This document shows positions 1 through 16,963 of a DNA stretch of 64,000 bases, in pieces; within the stretch, counting starts at the first letter, position 1, and the number at the start of each line of letters is the position of its first letter. Below the pieces are notes generated by a model that worked only from the letters and a program-made list of their open reading frames with translations, ran no database searches and had not been told where the DNA came from. This DNA is from an uncultured Gammaproteobacteria bacterium (lineage in GTDB: Bacteria; Patescibacteriota; Microgenomatia; Levybacterales; UBA12049), in the NCBI GenBank assembly GCA_964490105.1, contig CAZAZU010000001.1:306361-370360 (forward strand), in the 5' to 3' direction. Both the position numbers and the translations under genes were made by a program.

Positions 1-521
1 GTAAGAATTTTATCTGCTGATTTTATGTTTAATATATCTAAATTTTTTCTAACAAATCTATTTGTTTTTTCGTAAAATTTTCTAACTGGATCAAGATTCT
101 TTGGAATTCCTAAAATCGGCTCGTAAATAAATCTGTAATTCGTGTTATGACAATAAAGAATTTTATTCTTGTTCTTAAATAAAAGTAAAAATGGAGCTTC
201 TATGTATTTTGAACCGTTTACAAAAAGGATATCATACTCTTTTTCTCTGATGTCATTAGCAATTTTTTTGTGAAGTAAAAATAACTTAAATAACTCTACG
301 GAATCTTTGTAAATTTTTGCTTTCCAATTATTTCCTTTCCACTTTTTTGATTTAAATTTGTAAACAAAAGTTTTTGTGTAATATTTTTCATAGTTAAATT
401 TGTTATTTTCCTGCGTCGTATATAAATCAACTATATGATCTTTTTTAAGTCGAATCGCCATCTCGTTGATGACTTTTAACGCTCCCCCTTCCGGAAGCTC
501 ATGAAACACAGCGATTTTCAT
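1..521 (-). CDS. Glycosyltransferase family 4-like, N-terminal part. The gene continues beyond the window start, so the C-terminus is outside.
   Basis: My own minus-strand translation starts at ATG 521-519 and reads MKIAVFHELPEGGALKVINEMAIRLKKDHIVDLYT... This looks like a GT4 (group 1) N-domain. It is absent from the ORF track because it runs off the edge. Confidence 0.45.
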   Translation of the reverse strand, partial: MKIAVFHELPEGGALKVINEMAIRLKKDHIVDLYTTQENNKFNYEKYYTKTFVYKFKSKKWKGNNWKAKIYKDSVELFKLFLLHKKIANDIREKEYDILFVNGSKYIEAPFLLLFKNKNKILYCHNTNYRFIYEPILGIPKNLDPVRKFYEKTNRFVRKNLDILNIKSADKIL

Positions 522-1274
522 AAAAATTATTACCTGAACTATACAAGACGTCGACTATTTAGGTCAATCACAATTTTTAATTTTGTTGCTATAATACTTG
601 AAATTATTATGATGCTAACAGTAGTTGTATTAATCAGAAATAAAAAAAGTCTTTCCATTCATACACATAAATCAATCAAATTTTCCAATGATTTAATATT
701 CACGGAAAATAAAAACCAGGCGATAAAGAATGCTAAAAATGAATGGATTTTATTCTTAGAAAATGGCGACAAAATTTCTCCTGCTCTTCTTCGGGAATTA
801 AAAAACAAGACAAAACAAAAAACTTTCGATGGATATTTTATTAAGAAAAAAGTTATCTATGAAAATTCAATGCATTTAAATAATAATTCCTTAATTTCGC
901 AAAATTTAATACTTGGTAATAAAAATAAAGGAAATTGGGATAACGAATCGTGGAACATAGAAGGAGAAATTGGAATTATCTCTTCTCCTGTTATTTCATT
1001 TCGCAGGCCAACCTTGTCAGACTTTATTTCAGAAATAAATGAGTACACAACTGTGCGATCAAAGGAATTATTCTACGAAGATGAAAATGTAAATTATTTA
1101 AAAATTATTTATCCTACTTTTAGAAGATTTATAAAAGAATTTGTAATAAATAAAAAAATATTAAATGGATTTGAAGGATTTATCGTATCTGTTTTATTAA
1201 GCTTTAGTGTATTTATTCTTTTTGTAAAACTTTTGTATATTAAAAAAAATAATTCTAGTCCTGATAATTTTTAA
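501..1274 (+). CDS. GT2-like protein with degenerate motifs. The start is uncertain and it may be a pseudogene or non-catalytic remnant.
   Basis: The segment ...NAKNEWILFLENGDKISPALL resembles the GT2 region around the DxD motif (xxGEYIxFLDxDD), but the acidic motif is degraded. The ORF start overlaps the start of the minus-strand GT4. Confidence 0.25.
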   Translation: MKHSDFHKNYYLNYTRRRLFRSITIFNFVAIILEIIMMLTVVVLIRNKKSLSIHTHKSIKFSNDLIFTENKNQAIKNAKNEWILFLENGDKISPALLRELKNKTKQKTFDGYFIKKKVIYENSMHLNNNSLISQNLILGNKNKGNWDNESWNIEGEIGIISSPVISFRRPTLSDFISEINEYTTVRSKELFYEDENVNYLKIIYPTFRRFIKEFVINKKILNGFEGFIVSVLLSFSVFILFVKLLYIKKNNSSPDNF

Positions 1275-1977
1275 TTTTTTTTAGATCCTCTGCCATTTTT
1301 TCTTTTTTCCAAACATCAAATACGTTTTTATCATGATCATGGATTTTTTTATTATTTACTCTTAAATATGAATCGTCCGCCATGGACTTACCCACTTTAT
1401 AATGCATATGTTCGATAATTACCTCAGGGAAGTAGTATAGCTTTTTAAGCTGTTTCCCTATCTCCATCCAGGATTTATCAACCCACATATGATAAAGCCC
1501 AGGTATTGCTATAAACCCTAGTGCACGAAAAATATTTCCCGAAACAAAAGCAGCAGTTGAAAGTTTTTCTCCATACATTAAATCATTACCGTAACACACC
1601 CCCTTACCTCCGTTTTCCTCAATTTTTTTTATAAATTTTTCTTCCCAACCCTTAGTTCTTATTCTGTGGTCATCGCTAACTATAAAATAATATTTATAAT
1701 TTGGATATTTCTTAAATGCTCTATTTATGGAATCACACATATATTTACCACTCCCAATATCAAACATAATATCCTTGTGTCTGATGTATTCATTAAGCGT
1801 AATGTCATCATCGTCTAGACAAGTTACAACGTCAGACAGACCGCTTGTTGTTTGTCTCCATGATTTATAAAATCCTTCAATTTTCTGAGGTCTTGCTTTT
1901 GAGGATAATTGTATTAATATTGGTTTCACGAAAGTATTATAACATTTACTTTTATCAATAGATTTATTCTTAATCAC
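1255..1977 (-). CDS. Hypothetical protein, possibly a nucleotide-diphospho-sugar transferase-like enzyme
   Basis: 240 aa ORF with acidic DDDD and SDDH motifs. It sits in a glycan locus and has no secure family assignment. Confidence 0.3.
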   Translation of the reverse strand: MIKNKSIDKSKCYNTFVKPILIQLSSKARPQKIEGFYKSWRQTTSGLSDVVTCLDDDDITLNEYIRHKDIMFDIGSGKYMCDSINRAFKKYPNYKYYFIVSDDHRIRTKGWEEKFIKKIEENGGKGVCYGNDLMYGEKLSTAAFVSGNIFRALGFIAIPGLYHMWVDKSWMEIGKQLKKLYYFPEVIIEHMHYKVGKSMADDSYLRVNNKKIHDHDKNVFDVWKKEKMAEDLKKIKNYQD

Positions 1978-1995
1978 ATATAATAATATTTTGAA

Positions 1996-3603
1996 TTGAT
2001 GAAAAATATAATAAACAAAAATAAAAAAACACTAAAATCTTTTCATATTTTTTTTATTCTACTTATTGTCACCCTGATTATTCCAAGACTTATTGTTTTT
2101 ATATCGAGACAGGAATACATGGAAGGGTTTGCTTACTACTACTTCTTTGCAAGATCAATAATTATTGATCACAATTTTCCTTTAATTGGCCCTGTCGTGG
2201 GAGATGTTGGTGGATTTGCTCAGGGAGCAGGATGGTTCTATTTGCTCACTATCCCCTTTTTTATTTTTAATGGAAACCCATTCGGAATGTCAGTGCTAAT
2301 TTTTTGTATTAGTATTGTCACTTTATTGCTAGGGTCCATCATCGGATACACTATTATTGGCAAACGAGAGGGAGTATTAATATCTATTCTACTTGGCACC
2401 TCCCCGTATTTAATTAGTTGGTCCAATGATATTTGGCCACCATATGTTGTCCCCTTTATCGCTGTTCTTTACATTTTAGGATTATTACTTTTTCTTAAAA
2501 TAAATAAAAAAAGGTATTTTTTTATCATGCCTATTTGCCTCGGTGCAATGGCTCATTTTGAAATTGCATCTCTTGGACTATTATTTCCGAGTTTTATTTC
2601 TTTGACAGTATTTTTATTCATAAAAAATAAAATTATAAAAAAAGACATATTAATATCAGCAATATTTTTTGGGTCTTTTTTTATCCCACATCTAATTTAC
2701 GACCTAAAAAATAATTTCTACAACTTAAAAGGCATATTAGATTTAATATTATTTAAATCATCATCAGATAGATCGATTACACTCTCTGCAACTCTTGCTG
2801 ACAGGACACATTTACTAATAACTGATTTCATCAAAGTTTTTCCTACACCAGAAACTGGCACATTGTTATTATTTATTCTAATCTTACTTTTTGGCTACCT
2901 AAAATTAATAGGAGATAAAAAAATTAAAAACTGGCAAAAGATTTTTACTTCTTATTTACTAACCTCAATTTTATTAACCTTTATAAGCGTGTGTATTTTA
3001 CCTGTAGAAAGAGCTTCCTTCTGGTGGTTGACGTATTTAACAATATTTTATATTTTCTTTTCTGGCTTAATCACTTCATATATTTATTCAACTAACTATA
3101 GATTGCTTAAAATTATTTTGACAGTCATACTCAGCATTTTTGCATATTCATTTTTTAACAACTTTCTTATTATTTTAAATAATGAAAAACAATTACGATC
3201 AGTAAAGTATGTAATTAGTAAACAGTCACCTATTGAATTTATCTACAAAGATTCTCAAGATAAACCATTTAGAACATTATTTATAACTGGCGAGAAGGAC
3301 GTGGTAGACTATAAATACATGCTATGGTATGTTGGAAAAACTGATTTTCCCAACTCTCAGGCGATTAAGTTACTTGATTTAAACTACACACTTAAAGGCG
3401 GTGTGTTATTTAGCTACGATGAATCTACTCAATTTAGTAATTTAAAAAATGGATTATATTATTTAATTATTTCTAAAAACTCAGTAGAAAATGGTCACAT
3501 TGACAAAATATTAAAAAATGTAAATCTCGACTTAAAAGATACTAACTACATTGATCCATCTGGTTATTTTGAGGTTAAAAAATTTAATATTGATAAAAAT
3601 TAA
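1996..3603 (+). CDS. Polytopic membrane protein, putative GT-C fold glycosyltransferase
   Basis: 535 aa. The N-terminal about 400 aa are highly hydrophobic with multiple TM segments, followed by a soluble C-terminal domain. This architecture and the locus context fit ArnT/PMT/YfhO-like proteins. Confidence 0.4.
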   Translation: MMKNIINKNKKTLKSFHIFFILLIVTLIIPRLIVFISRQEYMEGFAYYYFFARSIIIDHNFPLIGPVVGDVGGFAQGAGWFYLLTIPFFIFNGNPFGMSVLIFCISIVTLLLGSIIGYTIIGKREGVLISILLGTSPYLISWSNDIWPPYVVPFIAVLYILGLLLFLKINKKRYFFIMPICLGAMAHFEIASLGLLFPSFISLTVFLFIKNKIIKKDILISAIFFGSFFIPHLIYDLKNNFYNLKGILDLILFKSSSDRSITLSATLADRTHLLITDFIKVFPTPETGTLLLFILILLFGYLKLIGDKKIKNWQKIFTSYLLTSILLTFISVCILPVERASFWWLTYLTIFYIFFSGLITSYIYSTNYRLLKIILTVILSIFAYSFFNNFLIILNNEKQLRSVKYVISKQSPIEFIYKDSQDKPFRTLFITGEKDVVDYKYMLWYVGKTDFPNSQAIKLLDLNYTLKGGVLFSYDESTQFSNLKNGLYYLIISKNSVENGHIDKILKNVNLDLKDTNYIDPSGYFEVKKFNIDKN

Positions 3604-3616
3604 ATGCAATAATTAC

Positions 3617-4255
3617 CTAACTGATTTTTTTTGTTTTGACTGCGAAAATATGAAAAGCTATTCTCGGAAAAAACCTGGTAATCTGTTGAGATAAATGCGA
3701 AATATAAAGCCAAACGTACCAAGGCTTATACTTAATGCTTGCCTCTTTACCTCTAATAATTTTTAATCCATGCATTCCCATGACGCGATAACCTCTTTTT
3801 TTAAATTCATGACTCTTCCATCCGGAAAGATGCTTCATATAAGGATTGCCATTGACGATTCCTTGTTTATGAAAACCCTCAGGAGTGAGTATGATAATTT
3901 TTTTTCTCGCAATCCATTCCATATCCTCCATCAATTTAATTCCATCTTTTTTATTCAAATGTTCAATTACATCAATAGCTACTACTGCGTCAAATGAATT
4001 TTTTTTATAAAACTTTCTAAGAAATCTTACATCTCCTTTTTTGTAAGCATCGTGTATCCAGAGTTTTTTATTTTTATTAATAGGCAATAAATCAATTCCC
4101 TCTAGATAATAATCTCTAGTAATTTTCCCAAACTGAGAATGTATCCCGGAACCGACTTCTAAAACAGACTTAAGACCTTTAAGTTCTTTTTTTAACTCGG
4201 AAAGAAGAGGTTCCTCCGCACTTCGTATGATCCTTGATTTAATTTCCTTTTTCAT
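3617..4255 (-). CDS. Class I SAM-dependent methyltransferase
   Basis: Motif I LEVGSGIH and post-motif II AIDVIEHL are typical of the Methyltransf_11/23 fold. Confidence 0.6.
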   Translation of the reverse strand: MKKEIKSRIIRSAEEPLLSELKKELKGLKSVLEVGSGIHSQFGKITRDYYLEGIDLLPINKNKKLWIHDAYKKGDVRFLRKFYKKNSFDAVVAIDVIEHLNKKDGIKLMEDMEWIARKKIIILTPEGFHKQGIVNGNPYMKHLSGWKSHEFKKRGYRVMGMHGLKIIRGKEASIKYKPWYVWLYISHLSQQITRFFPRIAFHIFAVKTKKIS

Positions 4256-5139
4256 TAGAAACTATTCCTAAACTTATTAATTTTCCTGAATAACTTTATT
4301 CTTAAAAAATGATTTATATCAAGTAAAAATAATTCTATTTTAAAAAATGTTTTTCCCCGGGAATCTTCAACAAGTATTAAGTCTTTAAATTTATTTTGAT
4401 TTCTTGCAACGTATAGTGGCAACATATCTATCCCGCCTATCTTAAACTTCCATCCGAATCCAAATGGATCATTGCCCAATAATATCGCTTTTCGAATTTT
4501 TTCAGGAGTATTATATTTGTCGTTATTCAATTCCTGATGCGCAAATGAAGATAGCTTTTGTTGAATTTTTTTAATTCCTCCCATATATGAAAAGTGCCAG
4601 CCACCATCGGAAATTTCAACATCCGGAGGTAAATATGAAGTTAAATATATATCTTTAAAAATTTTCTTGAGATCTTTATATTTAAACATTCTAGTTGTGT
4701 GCTCTGAATGCTTAATGCTTTCCGTATAAAAATTTAGGTAATAAAAACAAAGAGTTTGACTAAAAGCTTTAAGCCTCCCTGGCTTATCTTTCCACTCAAG
4801 AATCTTATCTGGTCTCGGAATTTCATCAACACATGAGTAAAGAATTACGTCCTCAGGTTTGCAATTCTTTAATCCTCTTTCTACCGCAGTGAGCTGATGT
4901 CTTTCAATAATCCATGTCATTCCTACATTCGGACTATCCTCAACGACCACATGAATTATCTTATCTTTAAATTTTTTAAATCTTTTTTTGTTTTCGTTAT
5001 AAAAAAGTTTTTTTGGCTTATTGGTATGTGAAACTGTTCCTTCCACAAGAACAAATTTATCCACCACATCCTTTAGTTCATTTAATCTTATTTCTAAAAG
5101 ATCAAGTTCGTTATAGAAAAGAAAGGTATCGTAAATCAT
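4255..5139 (-). CDS. Glycosyltransferase family 17-like (MGAT3-like beta-1,4-GlcNAc transferase family)
   Basis: The N-terminus MIYDTFLFYNELDLLEIRLNEL...VDKFVLVEG matches the characteristic GT17 start (xIYDCFxFxNELDLLElRLnxL..VDyFViVE). Confidence 0.55.
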   Translation of the reverse strand: MIYDTFLFYNELDLLEIRLNELKDVVDKFVLVEGTVSHTNKPKKLFYNENKKRFKKFKDKIIHVVVEDSPNVGMTWIIERHQLTAVERGLKNCKPEDVILYSCVDEIPRPDKILEWKDKPGRLKAFSQTLCFYYLNFYTESIKHSEHTTRMFKYKDLKKIFKDIYLTSYLPPDVEISDGGWHFSYMGGIKKIQQKLSSFAHQELNNDKYNTPEKIRKAILLGNDPFGFGWKFKIGGIDMLPLYVARNQNKFKDLILVEDSRGKTFFKIELFLLDINHFLRIKLFRKINKFRNSF

Positions 5140-6035
5140 ATTTTTTTATCAGAAATTAATTTTGATCTATGAGCTTTATTTTTAATTAATGATTCGACTA
5201 TACTTTTCGTGCTTTCTTTAAATTCGAAATTAAATGTTTTTTCAAACTTATGAGTATCAATTACTGTATTCATGTTTGATAGACTTTGTTTATTAATCTC
5301 TAAATCAATTTTTAATAAATCGGATATTGTTTTCCCAATTTCATAAATCGTACTGTTATAGCTAGCTAGATTATAAGTGCCTCTTTCTGCTTCGTTTTCA
5401 ATTATAGACTTTATAGATCTTGAAAAATCATTTATTCCTAAAATTGATCTGCGATCTTTAGGATTATAAATTACAATTTTTTTATTATTAATTCCGTTCA
5501 TATACAATTGATTTATCATTTGATTTATACGAAAGTTTTTTGCATATCCATTCATAGTTGCCATTCTTAAACTAAAATAATTAACTTTACTTAACGCAGC
5601 TATATCGTCAATTGCTTTTTTAGTTATGTCATAGTGCTTTAATAATCGACCCTTAACATCTTTTTCAGAAGCACTTTTTTTACCTGTGTCTCCGTAGACT
5701 CTAAAACTGCTTGCATATATAAATTTCTGATTTGATAATTTTTCTAATAAATCTACGAAATTTATAAGGTTATTTTTTAAAGAACCAGAAACATCAGATT
5801 CACACATTGAGACAGTTGAATGCCCAGCCAGAAGAATTACAACACCATAATTATTTAGAAATCTTTTTGATAATTTACCATAATTCATTTTTATATTTTT
5901 AGGATTTGTTACATTCCCGAACATTTCTGAATCAACCGTATCAACACTATATTTTTTTTGCTTTAAATATGGGAAAAGACTGCTTCCAATATATCCACAA
6001 CCACCAATAATTAGGATTTTTTTCATATCTGACAA
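5136..6035 (-). CDS. NAD-dependent epimerase/dehydratase family protein (short-chain dehydrogenase fold)
   Basis: N-terminal Rossmann motif ILIIGGCGYIGSSL, then SSFRVYG and YDITKK (YxxxK). Confidence 0.65.
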   Translation of the reverse strand: MSDMKKILIIGGCGYIGSSLFPYLKQKKYSVDTVDSEMFGNVTNPKNIKMNYGKLSKRFLNNYGVVILLAGHSTVSMCESDVSGSLKNNLINFVDLLEKLSNQKFIYASSFRVYGDTGKKSASEKDVKGRLLKHYDITKKAIDDIAALSKVNYFSLRMATMNGYAKNFRINQMINQLYMNGINNKKIVIYNPKDRRSILGINDFSRSIKSIIENEAERGTYNLASYNSTIYEIGKTISDLLKIDLEINKQSLSNMNTVIDTHKFEKTFNFEFKESTKSIVESLIKNKAHRSKLISDKKI

Positions 6036-6091
6036 AATTATAATATCGGTATAATATCAGCTAGGAACATTTGAGTAAAGAAACTTGAAAA

Positions 6092-7342
6092 TTAGATAAT
6101 TTTAGGTTTTGGGAAGGGTATAATAAATTTTCCTCCTGTGTCAGAAAAACTCTTGTTCTTCTTAATTATGGCTTCTGAAAAATTCCACGCCAATATTAAC
6201 ATATAGTCTATTTTTTTATTATTTAAAAAGGAGGAAGGAACAATTGGTATTCTTTTTCCCGGCGTAAACCTTCCCTGCTTCCAGGAACTGTCGTCAATAA
6301 TAAAGTCTATAGTTTCAGTTCCAATATTAAAATAATTTAAAAGTGTGTTACCTTTTGCTGGTGCTCCATACCCTGCAATTGTTTTATTTTTTCCTTTAAT
6401 ATTTATCAGTAGTTTTAATAAGCTTAATCTAACATGTTGTATATCATTAAAAAAATTAATATATGTTTGAGCATTATCAAGCTTAAGCTTTTTTTCTAGA
6501 TTAAGATGTTTTTGTACGGATCCGGAAAGTAAGTGTTTTGCGTTTTTATTTTTTACAAATATGCGGACTGTTCCACCATGCACTGGCAGACCCTCAACGT
6601 CAAATATTTCCATGCCAAAACGATTAAAAAGCGTTTGCAACGGCTTAATCGCAGGGAAAGAATGATGCTCATGATAAATCAGATCGAAATATTTATTCTT
6701 TAACATAACCGGTAAATATGGCACCTCAATGATAAATACCCCATCTTTTGCAAGTAAGTATTTTACGCCCTCTAACAACTGGTCTAAATTACTAATTTGT
6801 GCAAATGTATTGTTAGCGCAAATTATCTGGGCTTTACCGTATTTTCTCTCAATATTCTTTGCAACCTTAATTGAAAAAAAATCTTTAATAGTCTTAATCC
6901 CGTCTTTTTCTGCAACTGCTGCAATCTCCTTCACAGGGTCTACGCCGATCACACTTGCTCCTAAATTCTTAAATCCTTTCAGTAAAATGCCATCATTACT
7001 TCCGACATCAACAACTAATGACTTTTTTTGTAAATCAAACTTTTTATGAATATGAGCTGCATACTCTAGAAAATGCTTAACAAAAATAGGCGAAGTTGAT
7101 GAAACGTAAACATAATCATCAAATAATATTTCCGGCTTAATCTCATGTCCTAACTGAAGAAAATTGCAATTTGTACAGAAATAAACATCAAGAGGATAGT
7201 AAATTTCTTCTTTTTCTAAATTTTCTTTTAAAACGTATGAATTAGCATTTGGCTGAGGTCCGAGGGAAATTATTTTCCTAAGAGTATCTTTTTTACATGC
7301 CCTACAAAGAGATATCTTAATAACGCGATCATTTATCTTCAT
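6092..7342 (-). CDS. NDP-hexose C-methyltransferase family protein (TcaB9/TylC3-like), paralog 1
   Basis: N-terminal 4-Cys zinc ribbon (CRAC...CTNC), central SAM-MT fold (VVDVGSNDGILL, DGVFIIE) and the YHEHHSF motif of the C-methyltransferase C-terminal domain. Confidence 0.7.
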   Translation of the reverse strand: MKINDRVIKISLCRACKKDTLRKIISLGPQPNANSYVLKENLEKEEIYYPLDVYFCTNCNFLQLGHEIKPEILFDDYVYVSSTSPIFVKHFLEYAAHIHKKFDLQKKSLVVDVGSNDGILLKGFKNLGASVIGVDPVKEIAAVAEKDGIKTIKDFFSIKVAKNIERKYGKAQIICANNTFAQISNLDQLLEGVKYLLAKDGVFIIEVPYLPVMLKNKYFDLIYHEHHSFPAIKPLQTLFNRFGMEIFDVEGLPVHGGTVRIFVKNKNAKHLLSGSVQKHLNLEKKLKLDNAQTYINFFNDIQHVRLSLLKLLINIKGKNKTIAGYGAPAKGNTLLNYFNIGTETIDFIIDDSSWKQGRFTPGKRIPIVPSSFLNNKKIDYMLILAWNFSEAIIKKNKSFSDTGGKFIIPFPKPKII

Positions 7343-8571
7343 TTTCGGGAGAAAAAATCCTCAAAACTATCAAGAATAAATCTAATCATTTCTTTCGTAA
7401 TTGATGGATGAACAGACACAAAAAAACTGTCATTTAGTACCTTGTCTGAATTCGTAAGCGGTTTATAAATTCTGAAATCTGAATCTTCATAAGCAGGCTG
7501 TTTAATTATATTTCCTGCGAAAATTACCCTTGTCTCGATATTTCTATCTTCTAAAAATTTTCTAATTTCTCCTCTTATATTCTTACTTTTTAGTGTTAAT
7601 GGAAATGCGAACCAGCTTATGTCAGTGTCTTTGGGAGGAGCAGAAATTAAAAATGGAAGGTTCTTCTCCTCAACCCCTTTAACAAGCTCCAGATAATTTT
7701 CAAGACGGGCTTTTTTTATTTTCTTTATTTTCTTAAGCTGAACTCTACCCATGGCCGCTTGCAATTCAATCGGCTTAAGATTAAATCCCTTTGTTACATA
7801 CGTATATCGCGCAGGATAATCAGCCGGCAGACCTGCTTTTTTTGCTACTTTTACAGCATCTGTTTCATCTGCTCTGCCCCACTCCCTAATAGACTTGGCA
7901 TTTTTGTAATAAATATTTGAATTCGTAAACATTGCTCCGCCTTCTCCCGTGGTGATAATATGCGCTGCATGAAAAGATGTCGCTGAAATGTCAAAATAAC
8001 TTTCAACATATTTATTTTTATATGTTGAGCCAAACCCGTCACAGTTGTCCAAAATTGTTATAAGGCCTAGTTTTTTAAATTTCTCAAGCTTTGTCAGCTC
8101 TACAGTATTCCCGGCAATATTTACTACAATTATGGCTTTTGTTTTTTTTGTAATTGCCTTCTCTGCCTTTTCCAAATCAATACATAGATTATTTATATCA
8201 ACGTCTACATAAACAGGGGTTAACCCATTATATAGACATGCGCTTGCTACAGTTGGGAAATTTACAGCTGGAATAATTACTTCTGATCCTTTTGGAAGCA
8301 TTAACGAGGAAATTGCTAGCAACAGTGCTGATGACCCGGAGTTAGTAAACAAAGCATGTTTAACGCTGGCTTCTTTGGCAAGTTCATTTTCAAAAAGTCT
8401 GCCTTCCTCATCTAGTGTCCACCAATTGCGATCAAGTACTTTTTGTATTGCCCTATGCTCTCTTTCATCAACGACTGCTCCCCCGTATTTAATTCTTGTT
8501 TTACCTGGAATAAATTTTGATTTTATGTCCTGCTGCATCAATATCACCTTTTTGCTTAGGTATAATAACAA
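7339..8571 (-). CDS. DegT/DnrJ/EryC1/StrS family PLP/PMP-dependent enzyme with the active-site Lys replaced by His, putative sugar 3-dehydratase (ColD/E1-like)
   Basis: The fold-type I sugar aminotransferase motif region SFHAAHIITTGEGG aligns to ArnB SFHAIKNITCAEGG with the Schiff-base K at position 6 replaced by H. This is the signature of ColD/E1 3-dehydratases. Confidence 0.65.
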   Translation of the reverse strand: MLLYLSKKVILMQQDIKSKFIPGKTRIKYGGAVVDEREHRAIQKVLDRNWWTLDEEGRLFENELAKEASVKHALFTNSGSSALLLAISSLMLPKGSEVIIPAVNFPTVASACLYNGLTPVYVDVDINNLCIDLEKAEKAITKKTKAIIVVNIAGNTVELTKLEKFKKLGLITILDNCDGFGSTYKNKYVESYFDISATSFHAAHIITTGEGGAMFTNSNIYYKNAKSIREWGRADETDAVKVAKKAGLPADYPARYTYVTKGFNLKPIELQAAMGRVQLKKIKKIKKARLENYLELVKGVEEKNLPFLISAPPKDTDISWFAFPLTLKSKNIRGEIRKFLEDRNIETRVIFAGNIIKQPAYEDSDFRIYKPLTNSDKVLNDSFFVSVHPSITKEMIRFILDSFEDFFSRK

Positions 8572-8592: not shown

Positions 8593-9834
8593 TTACTTGT
8601 GAGGTGTTTGGGGCGCCTGTTTAAATACCTTATATAGAAAGTAAAAGATGAACGGAAGAGGCGACACAGCTCCGACTGTTGCAGCAATTACAGCTCCTGA
8701 TAATCCCCACATTAATATCATTGGGTAAATTAAAGCTATCATAACAGTAAAAGCTGTAAGCATAATTACTAAATTATATTCTTGCTTTTTTACAGCGTAA
8801 AAAACCGACCCAACCGGACTGAATACTGCGACTATAAATGCAAAAAGAGACATAAGTTTAAGTATTTGCGAAGCCTCCATCCAACTATCACCAAGAAAAA
8901 TCTGAATCAGTTGTGATGGGAAAAGAAAGAATATGACCGCAATAGGCAAAGTAACAATTGCAATCATGGATGTAGTTTTTATGTAAGCTCTTAGTAGTCT
9001 TCTTCTATCATCTGAAATCTTAACATAAACCGGAAAAGTTACTTTAGCGATTATCTCAGCGAGCTCCGTTGTTGGAAGTAGAGCGATAGTGTATGCCATA
9101 TCATAAATTCCTAAAGAAGTTGTACCCAGCACGCGTCCTACAACTATATTATCTCCATTTGAAAATAGGTATCCAAATGCTCCGGATGAGGTAATCCATT
9201 TACTGTGAGTAATAATATCTTTAAAAATATTTTTTTGAAATATAAATTTAGGCCTTGGTTTTACTATATAAAAAGATAGGATTACTTCAAAAATAGCGCC
9301 GCCCACTAACCCCCAAACTAGTGAGATTGGATTCTTTGTAACCAAAACCAAAATTAATGAGATCATGGTTTCGACCAAAACTATGCTAATTCTGTAATAA
9401 AATTCTTTTTTAAATTTTAATTCTTTCTGGAATTTCGCAACTGAAGGATTGATAAATCCTCTGACTAGTGGCACAAAAGAAATTAAGATTAGAAGACTCT
9501 TAGCTTCCTCGGATTTAAAAAAACTAGAAACAAATCCTGCAGATAGAAAAATTATTAAGAATATTATTAATCCCCTGCCAATTGAAATAATCCATGCTGT
9601 GTTTATGAACTCGTCAATTTTTTCTTTTTTTTGAACCAGAACTACATTAATTCCTGTTTCCGTTAATGTCTCTATGAGAGCAAGCATTAATGCAGCAATG
9701 CCAAAAATTCCAAACTGTGAAGGAGATAGAATTCTGGCAATTACTAAAGTTCTTAAAATAGAAGAACCTCTTGAAAAAAACTTTAAAGCACCTAGCCATG
9801 ACGCTCCGACAACTGCAGTTCTTAAATAACCCAC
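8593..9834 (-). CDS. wzx: Polysaccharide/oligosaccharide flippase (Wzx-like, MOP superfamily)
   Basis: 413 aa with about 12 predicted TM helices, the typical length and hydropathy of an O-unit flippase, and it sits in a glycan locus. Confidence 0.6.
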   Translation of the reverse strand: MGYLRTAVVGASWLGALKFFSRGSSILRTLVIARILSPSQFGIFGIAALMLALIETLTETGINVVLVQKKEKIDEFINTAWIISIGRGLIIFLIIFLSAGFVSSFFKSEEAKSLLILISFVPLVRGFINPSVAKFQKELKFKKEFYYRISIVLVETMISLILVLVTKNPISLVWGLVGGAIFEVILSFYIVKPRPKFIFQKNIFKDIITHSKWITSSGAFGYLFSNGDNIVVGRVLGTTSLGIYDMAYTIALLPTTELAEIIAKVTFPVYVKISDDRRRLLRAYIKTTSMIAIVTLPIAVIFFLFPSQLIQIFLGDSWMEASQILKLMSLFAFIVAVFSPVGSVFYAVKKQEYNLVIMLTAFTVMIALIYPMILMWGLSGAVIAATVGAVSPLPFIFYFLYKVFKQAPQTPHK

Positions 9835-9854: not shown

Positions 9855-12404
9855 TTATTTTTTATACACTGTAATCGTTAGTGGTGAGGCATCAAGACCC
9901 GCAATTGTATAATCTTTATCATTCAGAAATAGCATGCTTGTATCTTTTTTAAATTCTTTTATGACTTTGTAATTTTCTTTATTGAGTCGTCTGGTCAGAT
10001 CTTTTTTTGGAGAATTGTATTGAATTTCTCCCTCAACTTCATGATTCGTAATGACAATTACCTCAGGGAGCATCTTAGTGTTTGCGTCAACTATTTCATA
10101 CTTAAACTTGTTTTTGCTTCCAATACCATACTCTTTAAAATAAAATTCTTTTTGTAATTTATCTGGTATGTTTTGATAAATTGGTATATTTTCAAGTCCA
10201 ATTACCCAACCAGCTGGAATATTTTCTACTATCCAGTCGGAAGATTCTGACTGTAGGCTCTTAGTATATTTTGTTCCGATCCACGCTAGAGAAAAACAAA
10301 TCTGCGTTAGTATAATGGAAATTAAAATTAAATTTGACAGAATCTTAAATTTACTTTTCTTATCCCACAATCTCCATGCAATTGAAATTATTAATACAAA
10401 AAAAGGAAGGAGAACTAACGCCCTATTCCCACCTGCGTAAGCCTTAAGAGTTACTAAGCTTGATAGAAAAAGCATGAAAGAAAAAATAGTAAATATTTCC
10501 TGCTTATAATTCTTAAGTGATTTATTTAATCCGGATTTAAAAATTGAAGTAATTAAAAAAGCTAAAGACAAAATGAATAATGCTAATAATCCAGCTCCGA
10601 ATACCACTAAATAGTGTTTTAAGAAAACATAAATAATAAGATTTTCTCCACCTCTTATATTTTCAGAAGCTTTGGGGAATATAACCAGGTTTTCATATAA
10701 ATATCTGTAAATATTTCCAGTTCCGAATAATGTATCAGGAAAACCAAAAAGAATAGCGGTAAATAAAATCACAAAAAAACCAAACACCAGAAACCTTATG
10801 TTTTTTATTTTTTCTTTCTGAAACATTAGGTATGAGAGCAAATAAATTGGGATTAAAGACAGTACGCTGATCTTTACTGAAAGGGCCATTCCGACTGGAA
10901 TTCCTGCAATAATATAATTAATTCCTGTTGGGTTTTTCGAAAATTTGATGAAGAAGTAAATGCTCAGAAGTATAAAAAACATTAATGCGACATCGTACTT
11001 AAAGTATCCGCTTAACATTAGCCAGAGCGGATTAAAAGTGAATAATGTTATAGCAATTCTCTTTGGAATTTTTAGTAAATCAGATATTTTATAAACTAAA
11101 ATAATTGATAGGATTCCCCATATAACTGTGGTAAGTCTTAGCAGGATAAAAATATTCTGTCTTGCCATAAGATCATCTATCTTTAACTCAAAAGGATTAA
11201 CTATTCCTAAAAGTGTAAAAGGGATTAGGTAAAGACCGGATAATACAAAATGAAGCATAGTCCCATTTGCTGAACCCTCTATATTTGGCGTCCCGTATGC
11301 GTAGGTTGATCTTACAGCTTGAAGCTGATGCCACTCATCCATATGATATGGAAACGGATGGGAAATATTTGGAATTCCATAATTAACCGTTAGAAGCATT
11401 AAAAAAATGTATACTAACAAAACAAAAATCAAAAACTTACTTTTAATCAAAATGGAAACAAATTTTTTATAGCTAAACCTCTTGGCTATTCCAAGAGTAG
11501 TTCCTAATAAAACGGCTACGTCAGATGTAATTTGAAGTAGAGGAAGAATTAATAATGCCTTTTTATCATCTACGTATTTATAATTTTTCTTTACTACCCA
11601 GATAAAATATAAAACAATTGCTGCTGGAAAAATCAATAATCCGCTCCATGATCTTTCTAGAAAACACAAGAATAAAAAATAAAATCCGATAAAATATCTC
11701 AGGTAAATTAATGGAACCTGAGGCCTAATAAATAATGCTCTCCCATCTCCTTTTGCATAACCTAGAAATTGAAAAAATGCTTCTTTCAAATTATTTTTTT
11801 GCTCCCAATAAACAACTGCATTTTTTACAAAGATAAATTTGGAACCTTTTTCTTTTAATCTTTTAGCAAATACCAGATCCTCACATGTATCAAGCCACTC
11901 AGGGTATTTATTTTTATGCCAAACTTTTTTTCTGAAAGCGACCGAACGGGAAGAAGGTAAGAAGTCGTTTTCATTTACTTTGTCAGGCATTACGCAAGTA
12001 TATGCAGCCAAACATTTTTTAAATATATTTCCTGTAACTGGTTTATAAAATCCGGATACAGTGTCAATCTCCAAATCTTCAAACGGTTTAGAAATATTTT
12101 TAACCCAATTTTTATCGAGGCTGCAGCCAAAATCCGTTACAAGAATTATTTCATTTGAGGAATTCTTAATAGCAAAGTTACGGCCCACTGACCTGTTTCC
12201 TTTTTTTTGAAGAATTTTAATTTTCAACCTTTTTTTACTTCTTTTTACTATTTTTTCTTTTAATTTTTCTACAGTTTTATCTATACTTCCTCCATCTACT
12301 ATTATTAATTCATCGGGAAGAAGCGTTTGAGAAAATAATGATTTGAAAAATCTATCTACGTTATTTTCTTCATTTATGACGGTAGCTATAAGAGATAATC
12401 TCAT
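9855..12404 (-). CDS. Fusion of a GT2 glycosyltransferase to a large polytopic membrane domain (GT-C-like)
   Basis: The N-terminus has the GT2 motif LIATVINEENNV...LIIVDGGSIDKT, followed by about 600 aa of multi-TM domain. Confidence 0.6.
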   Translation of the reverse strand: MRLSLIATVINEENNVDRFFKSLFSQTLLPDELIIVDGGSIDKTVEKLKEKIVKRSKKRLKIKILQKKGNRSVGRNFAIKNSSNEIILVTDFGCSLDKNWVKNISKPFEDLEIDTVSGFYKPVTGNIFKKCLAAYTCVMPDKVNENDFLPSSRSVAFRKKVWHKNKYPEWLDTCEDLVFAKRLKEKGSKFIFVKNAVVYWEQKNNLKEAFFQFLGYAKGDGRALFIRPQVPLIYLRYFIGFYFLFLCFLERSWSGLLIFPAAIVLYFIWVVKKNYKYVDDKKALLILPLLQITSDVAVLLGTTLGIAKRFSYKKFVSILIKSKFLIFVLLVYIFLMLLTVNYGIPNISHPFPYHMDEWHQLQAVRSTYAYGTPNIEGSANGTMLHFVLSGLYLIPFTLLGIVNPFELKIDDLMARQNIFILLRLTTVIWGILSIILVYKISDLLKIPKRIAITLFTFNPLWLMLSGYFKYDVALMFFILLSIYFFIKFSKNPTGINYIIAGIPVGMALSVKISVLSLIPIYLLSYLMFQKEKIKNIRFLVFGFFVILFTAILFGFPDTLFGTGNIYRYLYENLVIFPKASENIRGGENLIIYVFLKHYLVVFGAGLLALFILSLAFLITSIFKSGLNKSLKNYKQEIFTIFSFMLFLSSLVTLKAYAGGNRALVLLPFFVLIISIAWRLWDKKSKFKILSNLILISIILTQICFSLAWIGTKYTKSLQSESSDWIVENIPAGWVIGLENIPIYQNIPDKLQKEFYFKEYGIGSKNKFKYEIVDANTKMLPEVIVITNHEVEGEIQYNSPKKDLTRRLNKENYKVIKEFKKDTSMLFLNDKDYTIAGLDASPLTITVYKK

Positions 12405-12479: not shown

Positions 12480-13823
12480 ATGCAAAAGATAGTTACGGTA
12501 ATTGGAATTGGGAGAGTCGGACTACCTCTTGCATTATTAATCTCCAGCAAAGGCTATACCGTATACGGAATAGGAAGAAACGAGAGTAAGATTGATCTCT
12601 TAAAGAAAGGCATCATGCCATTCAAAGAAGAAGGCGGAAATTTACTTAAAAAAAATATTAATAAAACTTTTATACCAACCACTAACTACGAGTTCGCTAA
12701 AAAATCAAACATTATCATATTAACACTAGGAACCCCGATCGACGAGAACATGAATCCAGTTCTTAGTCAAATTGACAGCGCTATTAATAAATTAATTCCA
12801 TTCTTACAAAAAAAACAGTTAATAATTTTAAGAAGCACAGTTTCCCCCCAAACAACAGAATATGTAAAAGAAAAAATAGAAATGTCTACAAAATTAAAAG
12901 TGGGCCATGATATCTTCCTTTCTTATTGTCCCGAAAGAATTGCGCAAGGAAAAGCAATTACTGAAACTAAAAGTATTCCTCAAATAATTGGGGGCATTAA
13001 TGAAATTTCTTCCGAAAAATCAAAAATCTTTTTCGAATCAATTGGAATAAAGTGTATTTTAACCGATGACGTTAGCGCAGAACTTGCAAAGCTATTTACC
13101 AATATGTACAGATACATATCCTTTGCAATCTCAAACGAATTTATGGTTATTGCGGAAAATTACAACAAAAACATCCATGAAATAATAAATCTTATAAATA
13201 AGGATTATAAAAGAGGCGGGCTGGCATTACCCGGACTGACAGCAGGTCCATGCTTATTTAAAGATGGCTTTTTCTTGATCAATGATAACCCCTACTTAGA
13301 TCTAATTACAGCCTCCTGGAAAATCAATGAATCACTACCATTGTTTTTAATTAAGAAAATGAAAGAAAAAACACCCCTTAAAGGTAAAAGAGTTTTGATC
13401 CTGGGTGTTGCGTTCAAACCGCAAATTGATGACATCAGGGAATCATTAAGCTTTAAATTACGCAAAGCATTACTTAGAGAACACGCAGAAGTGATCCTGC
13501 ACGACCCCTTCGTAAAAAATTATCACTCTCAAGAAGTTCTAAAAAATCTGGATGATGCGCTAAAAAATGTCGATATGGTTTTCGTAGCTACGAGGCATAA
13601 TGTTTATTCTAGAGAAAAGAAAAAAATAATTTCTAAGCTTTCTAAGGAAACATATATTTGCGATGTTTGGAACGTATTTGATTTCAACAAATTAGTATTT
13701 AAGGCTGGAGAGATTAATTCTAAAAAAGTCAAAGGAAAACTTCTAAAAACATCAATAAATCATTCAAAAAGAAAAACAGCTGGAATCAGAGCTACGTCAA
13801 ATAACCTTACCAACATTAATTAA
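12480..13823 (+). CDS. Nucleotide-sugar 6-dehydrogenase (UDP-glucose/GDP-mannose dehydrogenase family)
   Basis: N-terminal NAD-binding motif VIGIGRVGLPLA and the catalytic Cys motif GPCLFKD (compare GGxCFPKD). Confidence 0.7.
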   Translation: MQKIVTVIGIGRVGLPLALLISSKGYTVYGIGRNESKIDLLKKGIMPFKEEGGNLLKKNINKTFIPTTNYEFAKKSNIIILTLGTPIDENMNPVLSQIDSAINKLIPFLQKKQLIILRSTVSPQTTEYVKEKIEMSTKLKVGHDIFLSYCPERIAQGKAITETKSIPQIIGGINEISSEKSKIFFESIGIKCILTDDVSAELAKLFTNMYRYISFAISNEFMVIAENYNKNIHEIINLINKDYKRGGLALPGLTAGPCLFKDGFFLINDNPYLDLITASWKINESLPLFLIKKMKEKTPLKGKRVLILGVAFKPQIDDIRESLSFKLRKALLREHAEVILHDPFVKNYHSQEVLKNLDDALKNVDMVFVATRHNVYSREKKKIISKLSKETYICDVWNVFDFNKLVFKAGEINSKKVKGKLLKTSINHSKRKTAGIRATSNNLTNIN

Positions 13824-14773
13824 CTTGGGTTTGCTATATACCACTGCGCAGTCTTCTTAACTCCGTCCCTAAGACTTACCCTAGGCCTGAAACCTAATTT
13901 AGTAATCTTAGCTACATCAGGACACCTTCTTTGAGGGCTCCCGGGATTAATTTTTCCGGGTACCAATTCAACCTCATATTCCATTGCCCTACTGCACAGC
14001 TTAACTAAATCCTTAATAAGAACTTCATCCTGTCTTCCTATGTTGTACGTTTGAAGTGTTTTTGCATTACTTAGAAGAAGCATGAATGCGTCAGTAAAAT
14101 CGTCAATATATATAAATGAACGAGACTGATCTCCATTTCCCTGGATCTTAAATTCAGTTTTATTATGTTTTTTTAATTTATTAATTCCTAAAATAAATTG
14201 AGGAATAACATGCTCAAATCCCATTGCGGGGCCGTAAACATTATGCGGACGGAAAATCACCATTTTTTTAAATTTATTACCATTATTAATTGCCAATAAC
14301 TCCCCTATTATCTTACCTCCAGAATAAGAATAACGGGGATTATAAGGGTCAGGAACAATTAAGGGCGTACTTTCAGGCGTGGGTATTAATGAAGGCTCAT
14401 TATAGACCTCAGAGCTTGATGCAAAGAAGAATTCCTGTACGTTATTCTTGATAGAAGCGTCAAGAATATTTACCATTCCCTTAACTGCAACGTCTAGTAC
14501 GAGATCGGGTTTTTCGTAAAAAGTCTGGGTTCCATTTATATACGCCAGATGAATTACTGTACTAATCCCCTGGCATGCATCATCAACTATTTTTATATCT
14601 CGAATATCCCCCTTTATGAATTCAATTTTTTCGGAAAGCTTACCGAATTTATCAAATGATCCTCTTGACTCATTATCTAGTACTCTAACTGATTCACCTT
14701 TTTTCAAAAGAGAAAGAACTATAGATCTTCCAATAAATCCGCTCCCCCCAGTAACTAGATAGTTTTTTTTCAT
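13820..14773 (-). CDS. NAD-dependent epimerase/dehydratase, UDP-glucuronate decarboxylase (UXS)-like
   Basis: VTGGSGFIGRSIV, SSSEVY (compare TSEVYG in UXS) and YSGGK (YxxxK). It is divergent from, and adjacent to, the nucleotide-sugar dehydrogenase. Confidence 0.55.
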   Translation of the reverse strand: MKKNYLVTGGSGFIGRSIVLSLLKKGESVRVLDNESRGSFDKFGKLSEKIEFIKGDIRDIKIVDDACQGISTVIHLAYINGTQTFYEKPDLVLDVAVKGMVNILDASIKNNVQEFFFASSSEVYNEPSLIPTPESTPLIVPDPYNPRYSYSGGKIIGELLAINNGNKFKKMVIFRPHNVYGPAMGFEHVIPQFILGINKLKKHNKTEFKIQGNGDQSRSFIYIDDFTDAFMLLLSNAKTLQTYNIGRQDEVLIKDLVKLCSRAMEYEVELVPGKINPGSPQRRCPDVAKITKLGFRPRVSLRDGVKKTAQWYIANPS

Positions 14774-14829: not shown

Positions 14830-15705
14830 ATGATTATAATAAGCATGATGAAAAAAAGGAAGACAATTATTTTTGGGGGAAGCGGTTTTCTGGGAACATA
14901 TCTATACAAAAATAGTCTATCTGATCATTTCCTTGCTCCAATACATAAAGAGGTTGACCTCTTGGATCAAGAAAAAGTCTTGAAATTCATTGATAAAAAC
15001 GAACCTTCGCAAATCATATATTTAGCCGGCGTTACAAAAATTGAAATAGCAGAATCTAATAAAGATCTAGCTGACATGCTAAATCACAAAATACCAAAAA
15101 TAATTGCGAAATACGCTTCTAAAAACGGGGTTCCTGTCTTATACACCTCAACTGATGCTGTTTTTGATGGATACAAATCTAAATTTCTATTTAGTGAAAC
15201 AGATAAACCATTACCAAAAAGTGATTACGGAAAAAGTAAATACTTGGGAGAAACTGCAATCATGAATTCCTCAAATAAAAACTGCGTCCTTCGGCTGATT
15301 ACACTCTTTGGAGAAAATAGAAAAAATTTTGCCACTATTCTTATCGACAGGTTAAAAAACAACTTAGAATTTGCGGGTATGATTGACCAAACTCAAAACC
15401 CCTTACTTGTAAACATAGCTGCGAAAGGAATAAATTTCAGCATTAATAATGAGATTAAAGGAATCTACCACATGGGTTCTCTTGATTATTTAACGAATTA
15501 TGATTTACTGATAAAAATTGCTAAAAAAAATAACCTAGAGACAGATTTAATAAAAAAAATAACATTTAAGGATTTTTACGGCGACAAAGCAAACTACAGA
15601 AAAAGGAATAGCGTTTTGATAGCTGAAAAATTTAATGAAATTTCAAACAGGGAAATTCTAAAAAACACAGATGAATCCATAGAAATATTTACTAAATCTA
15701 AGTGA
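14830..15705 (+). CDS. dTDP-4-dehydrorhamnose reductase-like (RmlD substrate-binding family), second paralog
   Basis: IIFGGSGFLG at the N-terminus, STDAVFDG and YGKSKYLGE (RmlD has STDYVFDG and YGKTKLAGE). Confidence 0.55.
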   Translation: MIIISMMKKRKTIIFGGSGFLGTYLYKNSLSDHFLAPIHKEVDLLDQEKVLKFIDKNEPSQIIYLAGVTKIEIAESNKDLADMLNHKIPKIIAKYASKNGVPVLYTSTDAVFDGYKSKFLFSETDKPLPKSDYGKSKYLGETAIMNSSNKNCVLRLITLFGENRKNFATILIDRLKNNLEFAGMIDQTQNPLLVNIAAKGINFSINNEIKGIYHMGSLDYLTNYDLLIKIAKKNNLETDLIKKITFKDFYGDKANYRKRNSVLIAEKFNEISNREILKNTDESIEIFTKSK

Positions 15706-16963
15706 TTATTCTTGGCTTAGGTAATGGTTTTATGAATTTACCCTTAAAGCCTTTTTTTCTAAGATTTGAAATTAACTCATTTGATATGTGCCATGATAAT
15801 AGAAGCGCATAATCCGGCTGGTCTTTAAAAAGTCTTTCCTCATCAACGATCGGAATCAGAGTACCTGGAACATAATGGTTTATTTTATGTGACCCTTTTA
15901 TCTCAACAATTTTTTCAATTATTCCATCCTGAAGACCCAAATAATTAATGAGAGTTGTACCTCTTGATGGGGCACTTATCCCGTAAATTCTCCGTTTTTC
16001 ATTTTTTATACTACTTATAATTTTATACAGCTCTATTTTTGAACTAATTACATCGTTTTTAAATTTCTTAAATGAAGCTTGAGTGGTTACGGTTTCTTTT
16101 TCTTTTCTTAACTGTCTGGAAACCGATGCTTGTATCTTATGATTTCCTTTTAAAGAGGCATATACTCGAATTGACCCTCCATGAGAAGGTATTTCCTTAG
16201 CATGGAATATTTCGAGTCCGTGCATTTGTAATAAATTTCTTAAACTATGCAATGAATAATATCTTAAATGTTCGTGATAAATAGTGTCGTACTGTACTCC
16301 TTTTATTAACGAATATAAATAATGGGATTCACTTATGAATACTCCATCCTGCGTAAGAAGACTTTTAATATTATTAATAACCTCATGGGGCCTTTCGATA
16401 TGAGCAAAAACGTTTGCAGCTGTGACCAGTTTTGCTTTTCCATACTTCTTTATAATTTTATTAACGCTTTCTTTATTAAAATATTCTAAAATAGTAGGAA
16501 TTCCGTTTTTTATGGCAATCTTTCCGATATCTTCTGGCGTCACGCCAACTACCCGATGATTATCTTTAAAATTATTGAGAAGAGTTCCATCATTTGATCC
16601 AACGTCTACCACCAAATCATCCATTTCAATAATTTTTAATCGTGAGACTTCATTATATAGATCAAAAAAATTGTCCCGCAAAACCTTAGTTGTTCCGCTT
16701 GTATACGGGTAACTTTTAGGAAATAAAATTGTAGAATCAACTACTAACCCGATCTGAACCAGATGGCAGTTACTACAATACAATAGCTCTGCGGGATAAC
16801 TAGGCTGTTCAACAGGCGTAGCGCCAACTAAGGGCATCGAATTTACAGGCGGCATGTATCCCAGGAAAATTATAGATTTTAAATTTTTACTATGGCAAGT
16901 TTGACACGTCGTAACTGCAACACTTGAATTAGTTTTAAATGCTCTTGGAAGAACATCCTTCAT
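15698..16963 (-). CDS. NDP-hexose C-methyltransferase family protein, paralog 2
   Basis: Zinc ribbon CQTCHS...CSNCHLVQ, plus VVDVGSNDGTLL, DGVFISE and YHEHLRYYS. It is clearly homologous to the 6092-7342 gene. Confidence 0.7.
   Translation of the reverse strand: MKDVLPRAFKTNSSVAVTTCQTCHSKNLKSIIFLGYMPPVNSMPLVGATPVEQPSYPAELLYCSNCHLVQIGLVVDSTILFPKSYPYTSGTTKVLRDNFFDLYNEVSRLKIIEMDDLVVDVGSNDGTLLNNFKDNHRVVGVTPEDIGKIAIKNGIPTILEYFNKESVNKIIKKYGKAKLVTAANVFAHIERPHEVINNIKSLLTQDGVFISESHYLYSLIKGVQYDTIYHEHLRYYSLHSLRNLLQMHGLEIFHAKEIPSHGGSIRVYASLKGNHKIQASVSRQLRKEKETVTTQASFKKFKNDVISSKIELYKIISSIKNEKRRIYGISAPSRGTTLINYLGLQDGIIEKIVEIKGSHKINHYVPGTLIPIVDEERLFKDQPDYALLLSWHISNELISNLRKKGFKGKFIKPLPKPRIIT

Follow-up and report, generated by a model that had tools for sequence, protein, structure and literature searches.

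Which reaction is catalysed by a DegT-family protein in which the Schiff-base lysine has given way to histidine? The question is raised by a gene on the minus strand of a 64,000-nucleotide stretch of DNA from an uncultured bacterium (assembly GCA_964490105.1, contig CAZAZU010000001.1, positions 306,361 to 370,360; G+C content 33%), which is referred to as the window throughout. The gene (7339..8538) encodes a His-type DegT protein of 399 amino acids (aa), which is predicted to be a nucleoside diphosphate (NDP)-4-keto-sugar 3-dehydratase that depends on pyridoxamine 5'-phosphate (PMP) and has no iron-sulfur (Fe-S) cluster; we call it the dehydratase in what follows. The sugar 3-dehydratases studied so far are of three kinds, two with an iron-sulfur cluster (E1 and SpnQ) and one without (ColD). 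Judging from its sequence and by analogy with these enzymes, we consider it probable that the dehydratase is a PMP-dependent enzyme that turns over without a reductase.

Histidine in the place of the Schiff-base lysine

A sequence-only reading of this DNA had claimed that a histidine occupies the position of the Schiff-base lysine, and had quoted the corresponding motif of ArnB. The quotation was correct and so was the register. The active-site motif SFHAAHIITTGEGG (7936..7977, minus strand, read by translation) contains the codon of His193 at 7960-7962, and in a direct alignment of Escherichia coli K-12 ArnB (SFHAIKNI-TCAEGG) with the dehydratase (SFHAAHII-TTGEGG) His193 falls exactly into the column of the ArnB lysine. 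The two natural DegT aminotransferases of the Lys type that were taken from related loci have Lys in this column as well. A PDB search followed by a MAFFT check placed His220 of E1 (3BCX), the lysine of the E1 H220K mutant (3BB8) and His188 of ColD there as well, i.e. the alignment with ColD, E1 and true aminotransferases that the earlier reading had proposed returned His and not Lys. The S-x-x-x-x-K motif, by whose Schiff-base lysine the Lys-type aminotransferases are recognised, thus ends in His in the dehydratase. The exchange of Lys for His is the stated hallmark of the sugar 3-dehydratases (PMC8987622; bioRxiv 10.1101/2021.09.04.459008).

The conservation of this residue is complete among close homologues (His in 123/123 sequences of the alignment) and nearly so in a wider sample (148 of the 150 most similar 50%-identity cluster representatives), and we therefore regard it as a fixed trait, neither a chance change nor a sequencing error. 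The residues of the cofactor site, i.e. the SGSS loop, Asp164, Ser188 and the GEGG segment, are invariant in the clade, which indicates an active enzyme under selection. A catalytically dead relic of a DegT enzyme, for which the loss of the canonical lysine might be quoted, is scarcely credible: His193 and the cofactor residues are invariant over 45 to 120 homologues, down to 45% identity, the AlphaFold 2 (AF2) model is confident and the operon context is conserved. A pseudoenzyme was rejected on the conservation of these residues.

As to the extent of the gene, the open reading frame (ORF) reported earlier at 7339-8571 exists, and its strand, which had not been given, is minus. This mechanically defined ORF opens at a TTG at 8571 and has 410 aa; the catalytic residue would then be H204. 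Public gene calls begin at the ATG at 8538, giving 399 aa, and exactly this product is on record. A Shine-Dalgarno-like AAGGTGAT was read in the sequence 4 nucleotides (nt) 5' of this ATG (8543..8550, minus strand). The ATG at 8538 is likely the true start, and residue numbering follows the 399-aa form, in which the catalytic histidine is H193. The 399-aa protein matches the Pfam family DegT_DnrJ_EryC1 at 1.9e-78.

Missing cluster ligands and the relation to E1, ColD and SpnQ

When the PDB was searched with phmmer, E1 was the best match (3BCX, 7.7e-72), ColD the second (1e-46), and Lys-type aminotransferases followed at 1e-37 or weaker. The AF2 model (predicted local distance difference test score, pLDDT, 93.6) agrees: Foldseek aligned it with E1 at a template modelling (TM) score of 0.92 and with ColD at 0.87, both ahead of all aminotransferases. 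The best NCBIfam model was RfbH (NF011936), with 339.1 bits, below the equivalog cut-off of 423. The sequence-only reading had spoken of a ColD/E1-type 3-dehydratase. Of this, the exactly placed His and the first rank of E1 and ColD in sequence and fold can be kept, but the protein has neither the cluster nor the E3 partner of E1 and is not an orthologue of ColD.

The four cysteines of E1 bind a [2Fe-2S] cluster (PMC8987622). Their motif is C193-X57-C251-X1-C253-X7-C261, of which the numbering and the spacing were confirmed on the 3BCX sequence. In the dehydratase a short Cys-free loop, REWGRADETDAVKVAKKAGLP (7825..7887, minus strand), stands in place of the E1 loop WGRDCYCAPGCDNTCKK, with a gap of 7 residues relative to E1 in the phmmer alignment; the part that bears C251, C253 and C261 in E1 is reduced to REWGRADETDAV, with zero cysteines. 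The loop cysteines are missing in the dehydratase and in all 120 close homologues. The pLDDT of the AF2 model is only 67-86 in the region of the shortened loop. The whole protein has 3 cysteines, one of which is conserved, i.e. the equivalent of E1 Cys193 is kept and three of the four E1 ligands are gone. We note that the column of E1 Cys193 (Cys166 of the dehydratase, codon at about 8041-8043, minus strand) holds Cys in 119/123 sequences, among them ColD and every cluster-less form, and its conservation is therefore not due to cluster binding alone.

The reductase is missing as well. The search for an E3-like partner, which had been proposed together with the original claim, was carried out over the window, the adjoining 6.4 kb on the left and 22 related loci, and found none. 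Specifically, Pfam searches for the E3 domains (Fer2/FAD_binding_6/NAD_binding_1) were negative in essentially all window ORFs of >=110 aa and in the 6.4 kb on the left, and a motif scan for plant-type ferredoxin/FNR signatures was negative in the ORFs of >=80 aa of the window and the 22 related loci. With neither cluster ligands nor reductase, a reductive completion of the E1/E3 type is therefore excluded on sequence evidence. ColD works without a cluster, using pyridoxal 5'-phosphate (PLP) and L-glutamate (PMC8987622), and the C3-dehydratases of Campylobacter jejuni are likewise cluster-less His-type enzymes that work with PLP and L-glutamate.

A variant of the reductive scheme would be an enzyme of the E1/SpnQ type that has no cluster of its own and is fed by a general ferredoxin, flavodoxin or flavoprotein encoded elsewhere. 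E1 is the nearest relative by sequence and fold and shares the lysine in the GxNxK motif, SpnQ is served by general reductases and not by a dedicated E3 (PMC8987622), and the DNA inspected, about 70 kb, is only a part of a contig of at least 465 kb. We nevertheless hold this variant to be very improbable, as both known reductive enzymes require their own [2Fe-2S] cluster (PMC8987622), the dehydratase retains one conserved Cys where four ligands would be needed, and a reductase was neither linked nor fused in the loci and representatives examined; in particular, no E3-type reductase fusion was seen among the long family representatives examined.

E1 (RfbH/DdhC/AscC), the CDP-6-deoxy-L-threo-D-glycero-4-hexulose 3-dehydrase of Yersinia and Salmonella (CDP, cytidine diphosphate), is about 34% identical to the dehydratase in the structural alignment. 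The two share the catalytic His column, the equivalents of Asp194 and Phe345 and the lysine of the GxNxK motif. They differ in that Cys251, Cys253 and Cys261 are absent from the dehydratase, whose loop is shorter, no E3 partner is present, the RfbH score is below its cut-off, a His stands where E1 has Tyr217, and the context of the CDP-glucose pathway (the DdhA cytidylyltransferase and the DdhB 4,6-dehydratase) is missing from the window. As the three cysteines and the E3 partner are absent, the dehydratase is not of the E1 type mechanistically, even though E1 is its closest solved relative. It lies outside the E1 family: cluster motif, E3 partner, equivalog score and CDP context were all tested, and it shows none of them.

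With ColD, the GDP-4-keto-6-deoxy-D-mannose 3-dehydratase (GDP, guanosine diphosphate), and with the C3-dehydratases of C. jejuni HS:5/HS:11 the dehydratase shares the histidine, the lack of a cluster and the lack of a reductase, and theirs is the sole characterised mechanism that fits its cofactor make-up. ColD is nevertheless only about 28% identical, forms a separate clade in the tree described below, has the motifs SFYSHH, AHGW (loop) and GYNVR against SFHAAH, EWGR and GFNLK in the dehydratase, and belongs to a setting of GDP-mannose pathway genes (ManC, Gmd, ColC/Fcl-like) that is not found in the window. The dehydratase is thus no orthologue of ColD, by its separate clade, its different motifs and the missing GDP-mannose context. 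SpnQ, the dTDP-4-keto-2,6-dideoxyglucose 3-dehydratase of the spinosyn forosamine pathway (dTDP, deoxythymidine diphosphate), was compared by its published description (PMC8987622). It resembles the dehydratase in being of the His type without a dedicated E3 gene, and a dTDP-sugar context is plausible here as well, given the neighbouring homologue of dTDP-type 3-C-methyltransferases and the RmlC and RmlD genes. SpnQ has, however, a [2Fe-2S] cluster and needs ferredoxin/flavodoxin reductase systems (PMC8987622), whereas the dehydratase is without cluster ligands, which rules out an SpnQ-type identity.

The Lys-type aminotransferases (ArnB, PseC, QdtB, perosamine synthase) share the fold, the Pfam family and the pattern SFHxx(K/H)..GEGG with a His at position -3; they differ by their Schiff-base Lys and match more weakly than E1 and ColD. 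This raises the alternative that the protein is a sugar 4-aminotransferase, or a combined dehydratase-aminotransferase leading to a 4-amino-3,4,6-trideoxy sugar, with His in place of Lys as in SpnQ when no reductase is present. SpnQ, itself of the His type, indeed transaminates with PLP and glutamate in the absence of reductase (PMC8987622), and the His at -3 of the clade (SFHAAH) is that of ArnB (SFHAIK), where E1 has Tyr. ColD and E1, on the other hand, were without such transferase activity under similar conditions (PMC8987622). The recurrent adjacent or fused short-chain dehydrogenase/reductase (SDR) described below argues for a keto product that has still to be reduced; within the window the dehydratase gene is not coupled to any N-acyltransferase or N-methyltransferase, and several loci have a separate Lys-type aminotransferase. 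Taken together, we find a transaminating function distinctly unlikely.

The 120 closest homologues (45-97% identity, mostly 385-415 aa) all have the His, the SFHAAH motif and the Cys-free short loop. An exhaustive search of 1.84 billion representatives gave 764 matches at E <= 1e-30, and the 148 His-bearing proteins among the best 150 were classified: 79 have the Fe-S-type loop, 62 are without loop cysteines and 7 have one or two. In this diverse sample the cluster cysteines are missing from about 40% of the family. In a neighbour-joining tree, calculated without support values, the Lys-type aminotransferases lie outside, the ColD-like proteins make up a cluster-less clade of their own close to the base, and the SFHAAH group of the dehydratase holds together as a clade on the E1 side, where the deeper branches are Fe-S forms. 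This topology suggests that the cluster was lost independently of ColD. In the genome collections, close relatives (>=40% identity) were found in metagenome-assembled genomes (MAGs) only, among them genomes of several Patescibacteria lineages (Daviesbacteria, Zambryskibacteria, Saccharibacteria, Yanofskybacteria), uncultured Gammaproteobacteria, Gallionella, a Coxiella sp. MAG and Verrucomicrobiota. The only label for the clade in the sources was an automated one of the Joint Genome Institute (JGI), 'CDP-6-deoxy-D-xylo-4-hexulose-3-dehydrase', and literature searches in a restricted collection turned up no characterised cluster-less E1-like enzyme.

One of the related loci, L001, contains a gene of the cluster-less clade and, some 9 kb away, a true RfbH of the Fe-S type (644.8 bits, loop WGRDCWCDTGSDNTC). 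The cluster-less clade and RfbH are therefore paralogous, distinct lineages, presumably with different jobs. Besides RfbH (155-1441, minus strand) this locus also holds a split transketolase pair and a glucose-1-phosphate cytidylyltransferase-like gene (2332-4073 and 5998-6777, both minus); split transketolases are found again in L002, L013, L019 and L084, and their role may be to attach a two-carbon branch to a keto sugar. A second class of cluster-less His-type DegT proteins was seen in L014 (3699-5054), L019 (18427-19773) and L003 (14195-15430), with the motif SFYASH.ITAAGGGG in L014 and L019 and the loop DWGRFGDDNE..ERFN (L014/L019) or DWGRVGDDRE..DRFN (L003). In these three genomes it shares the locus with a gene of the dehydratase clade, and one locus can therefore house two cluster-less paralogues. 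Among the family representatives of 640-890 aa, many have an intein-like insertion (P0145, P0160, P0174, P0181, P0189, P0191, P0209, P0211, P0231 and P0242, with further cases in P0212, P0122, P0123 and P0107, the last of which matches Pfam Hint_2/Intein_splicing). The insertion site is often exactly within the Fe-S motif (e.g. DWGRDC|F...HN|CWC) or just past the catalytic His motif.

Gene neighbourhood and the predicted sugar product

The neighbours named in the sequence-only reading are real: the Wzx flippase lies upstream, the C-methyltransferase starts on the stop codon of the dehydratase, and the SDR comes next. The dehydratase belongs to a tight chain of seven co-directional genes on the minus strand, in the order GT2-PMT_2, Wzx, dehydratase, C-methyltransferase, SDR, GT17 and a small methyltransferase-like gene (GT2 and GT17, glycosyltransferase families 2 and 17). 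The partner that bears most directly on the product is the NDP-sugar C-methyltransferase (6092..7342, minus strand), which has zinc-binding, S-adenosylmethionine (SAM) and C-terminal domains (Pfam Methyltransf_13/14/23) and matches MtmC (4RV9, 3.3e-93), TcaB9 (3.6e-69) and a sugar 3-C-methyltransferase (5T64, 7.9e-68) in the PDB; it is thus a close homologue of dTDP-sugar 3-C-methyltransferases of solved structure. Its ATG overlaps the dehydratase stop codon as ATGA in the sequence, and the two genes are translationally coupled. With this coupling, a C-methylated 3,6-dideoxyhexose, the product put forward in the sequence-only reading, is plausible.

The next gene encodes a short extended SDR (5136..6035, minus strand; Pfam Epimerase 4.4e-19, motifs GGCGYIG and YDITK), a probable C4 ketoreductase partner. 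Its public gene call opens at 6026 and gives 296 aa, and its similarity to PDB entries is weak. In the window the C-methyltransferase alone stands between it and the dehydratase, and an SDR directly adjoins the dehydratase in 14 related loci (L002-L009, L011, L013-L016 and L084). Orthologues of the window SDR (48-49% identity) come after the dehydratase in L002 and L084, where the C-methyltransferase is present as well. The adjoining SDRs belong to at least five unrelated lineages, all of them with YxxxK and all but one with a Gly-rich NAD motif; such diversity is what one would expect of 4-ketoreductases with differing stereochemistry. A Rosetta-stone test gave the same association, since long family representatives, both Fe-S and cluster-less, turned out to be fusions of a His-type domain with an SDR domain. 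The SDR, RmlD-like or extended, is fused at either terminus (P0129, P0135, P0142, P0143, P0149, P0190, P0202 and P0233), and P0197 joins a His-type DegT domain to a GT2 glycosyltransferase. Across the related loci a recurring cassette can be recognised, [C-methyltransferase]-dehydratase-[SDR]-GT17-Wzx-(225-aa protein)-GT4-GT2/PMT_2, in which the bracketed genes are not always present.

The nucleotide carrier was approached by BLAST of E. coli RmlA, RmlB, ManC, Gmd, GalF, Fcl and ArnA against all loci, and the signals were mixed. Cytidylyltransferase-like genes were found in L001 and L007 only, L014 has Gmd, L012 and L016 have Fcl, and several loci contain RmlB-like SDRs; the window has no homologues of ManC, Gmd or Fcl. 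The methyltransferase homologues together with RmlC and RmlD suggest a dTDP carrier, the automated JGI name and the cytidylyltransferase-like genes of L001 and L007 suggest CDP, and the Gmd/Fcl homologues of L012, L014 and L016 suggest GDP.

It is also conceivable that the dehydratase removes the 3-hydroxyl of a 4-keto sugar other than a 6-deoxyhexose, supplied by a C4-oxidising SDR or a decarboxylase, and that the product is not a 3,6-dideoxyhexose. The window has no clear 4,6-dehydratase. One of its SDRs (SDR317, 13820-14773), which lies beside a nucleotide-sugar dehydrogenase, has only a generic likeness to epimerase/UXS proteins, and the SDR adjoining the C-methyltransferase has no close characterised relative. 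All characterised 3-dehydratases, however, use 6-deoxy-4-keto sugars (PMC8987622), RmlB-like SDRs are often just upstream of the dehydratase in relatives (immediately so in L006, L010 and L018), and, to judge from RmlC and RmlD in the window, the genome provides for dTDP-4-keto-6-deoxyglucose. A substrate that is not 6-deoxygenated thus seems improbable to us.

Of the other members of the chain, the first encodes a GT2 and PMT_2 fusion glycosyltransferase of 849 aa (9855..12404, minus strand; Pfam Glycos_transf_2 and PMT_2), and GT2-PMT_2-like fusions were also seen in relatives (L001:15375-17642, L084:16416-18662 and L085:8826-11084). An Arn-like route with the fused GT2 in the role of ArnC was rejected, since the GT2 domain has no similarity to ArnC (E 0.31). 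The Wzx-type MOP flippase (8593..9834, minus strand; Polysacc_synt_3 3.2e-71, NCBIfam MOP flippase 2.8e-53) ends 54 nt upstream of the dehydratase start. The GT17-family glycosyltransferase (4255..5139, minus strand; Glyco_transf_17 5.3e-30) overlaps the stop of the SDR and has orthologues of 62-63% identity in L001, L084 and L085; GT17 genes adjoin the dehydratase in relatives. The last gene, for a small methyltransferase-like protein of 212 aa (3617..4255, minus strand; weak Pfam Methyltransf_23), overlaps GT17 in turn and has orthologues in L002 and L084 (62-63% identity). The locus also holds RmlC, RmlD and a second RmlD-like gene, and it runs on to the left of the window with further glycosyltransferases and a Wzy_C protein.

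Several further PMT_2 proteins are present in the locus. About 19 kb of this one glycan locus, in an apparently small genome, contain four paralogous NDP-sugar C-methyltransferases (Methyltransf_13/14; 6092-7342 and 15698-16963 on the minus strand, 17954-19192 and 23640-24917 on the plus strand), of which the other three are 32-37% identical to the one at 6092-7342; this points to more than one C-branched sugar or to repeated C-methylation. A recombinase of the phage-integrase family (61651-62739, plus strand) lies beside FtsZ, close to the right end of the window.

Proposed reaction, objections and meaning

By analogy with E1 and ColD, the C4 keto group of the NDP-4-keto sugar would condense with PMP to a ketimine, and His193 would act as the base that takes the C4' proton of PMP while the 3-hydroxyl leaves. 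Most likely the enamine would then be hydrolysed as in ColD, giving the 3-deoxy-4-keto sugar and ammonia, and PMP would be remade from PLP with an amino-acid donor, which is L-glutamate in ColD. The gene coupling suggests that the 3-C-methyltransferase homologue would C-methylate the 3-deoxy-4-keto product and that the downstream SDR would reduce C4, leading to a branched dideoxy sugar; whichever of dehydration and methylation came first, the result would be a 3-deoxy-3-C-methyl sugar. The branched sugar would enter a surface glycan through the action of GT17 and the remaining glycosyltransferases of the locus, which is of the Wzx/Wzy type.

Several observations weigh against a ColD-like enzyme in such a route. 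About 70 kb around the gene (the window and the 6.4 kb on its left) contain no nucleotidyltransferase and no clear 4,6-dehydratase. The C-methyltransferase and the SDR lineage of the window are missing from the close relatives L001 and L085, and the methylated product is therefore not general to the clade. In the unsupported neighbour-joining tree the clade nests on the E1 side and not with ColD. The G-x-N-x-(R/K) motif has Lys in the dehydratase and in 109/123 sequences of the close-homologue alignment, as in E1, and Arg in the ColD-like proteins and in 2/3 of the Lys-type aminotransferases aligned. This Arg may bind the amino-acid co-substrate, and if it is needed for glutamate, the clade may recycle PMP in a different way. 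We nevertheless continue to prefer the 3-dehydratase that turns over without a reductase.

A more specific scenario goes further. An enzyme of the E1 lineage would have lost both the cluster and the need for a reductase independently of ColD; coupled in this Patescibacteria-like genome to a 3-C-methyltransferase and a novel SDR, it would supply a Wzx/Wzy-built surface glycan with a 3-deoxy-3-C-methyl sugar, of which no characterised pathway is known, and it would recycle PMP unlike both E1 and ColD, as hinted by the lysine of GxNxK. With all its parts taken together, this scenario appears rather unlikely, and we offer it as a speculation.

The basic functional guess is not new, since automated pipelines already name such proteins E1 dehydrases, and that a His-type DegT protein should be a dehydratase will be of little surprise to the specialist; the protein is a variant within the His-type DegT sugar 3-dehydratases. 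What is new is a distinct, abundant, uncharacterised cluster-less lineage that is E1-like in sequence and occurs mostly in uncultured bacteria, and this lineage, together with its coupling to a C-methyltransferase, raises a testable question. A characterised member would correct the automated labels of CDP-sugar E1 dehydrase. It would tell whether the loss of the cluster always means a switch to ColD-type chemistry and by which route PMP is recycled. It would also tell which deoxy and branched sugars decorate the surfaces of bacteria of the candidate phyla radiation.

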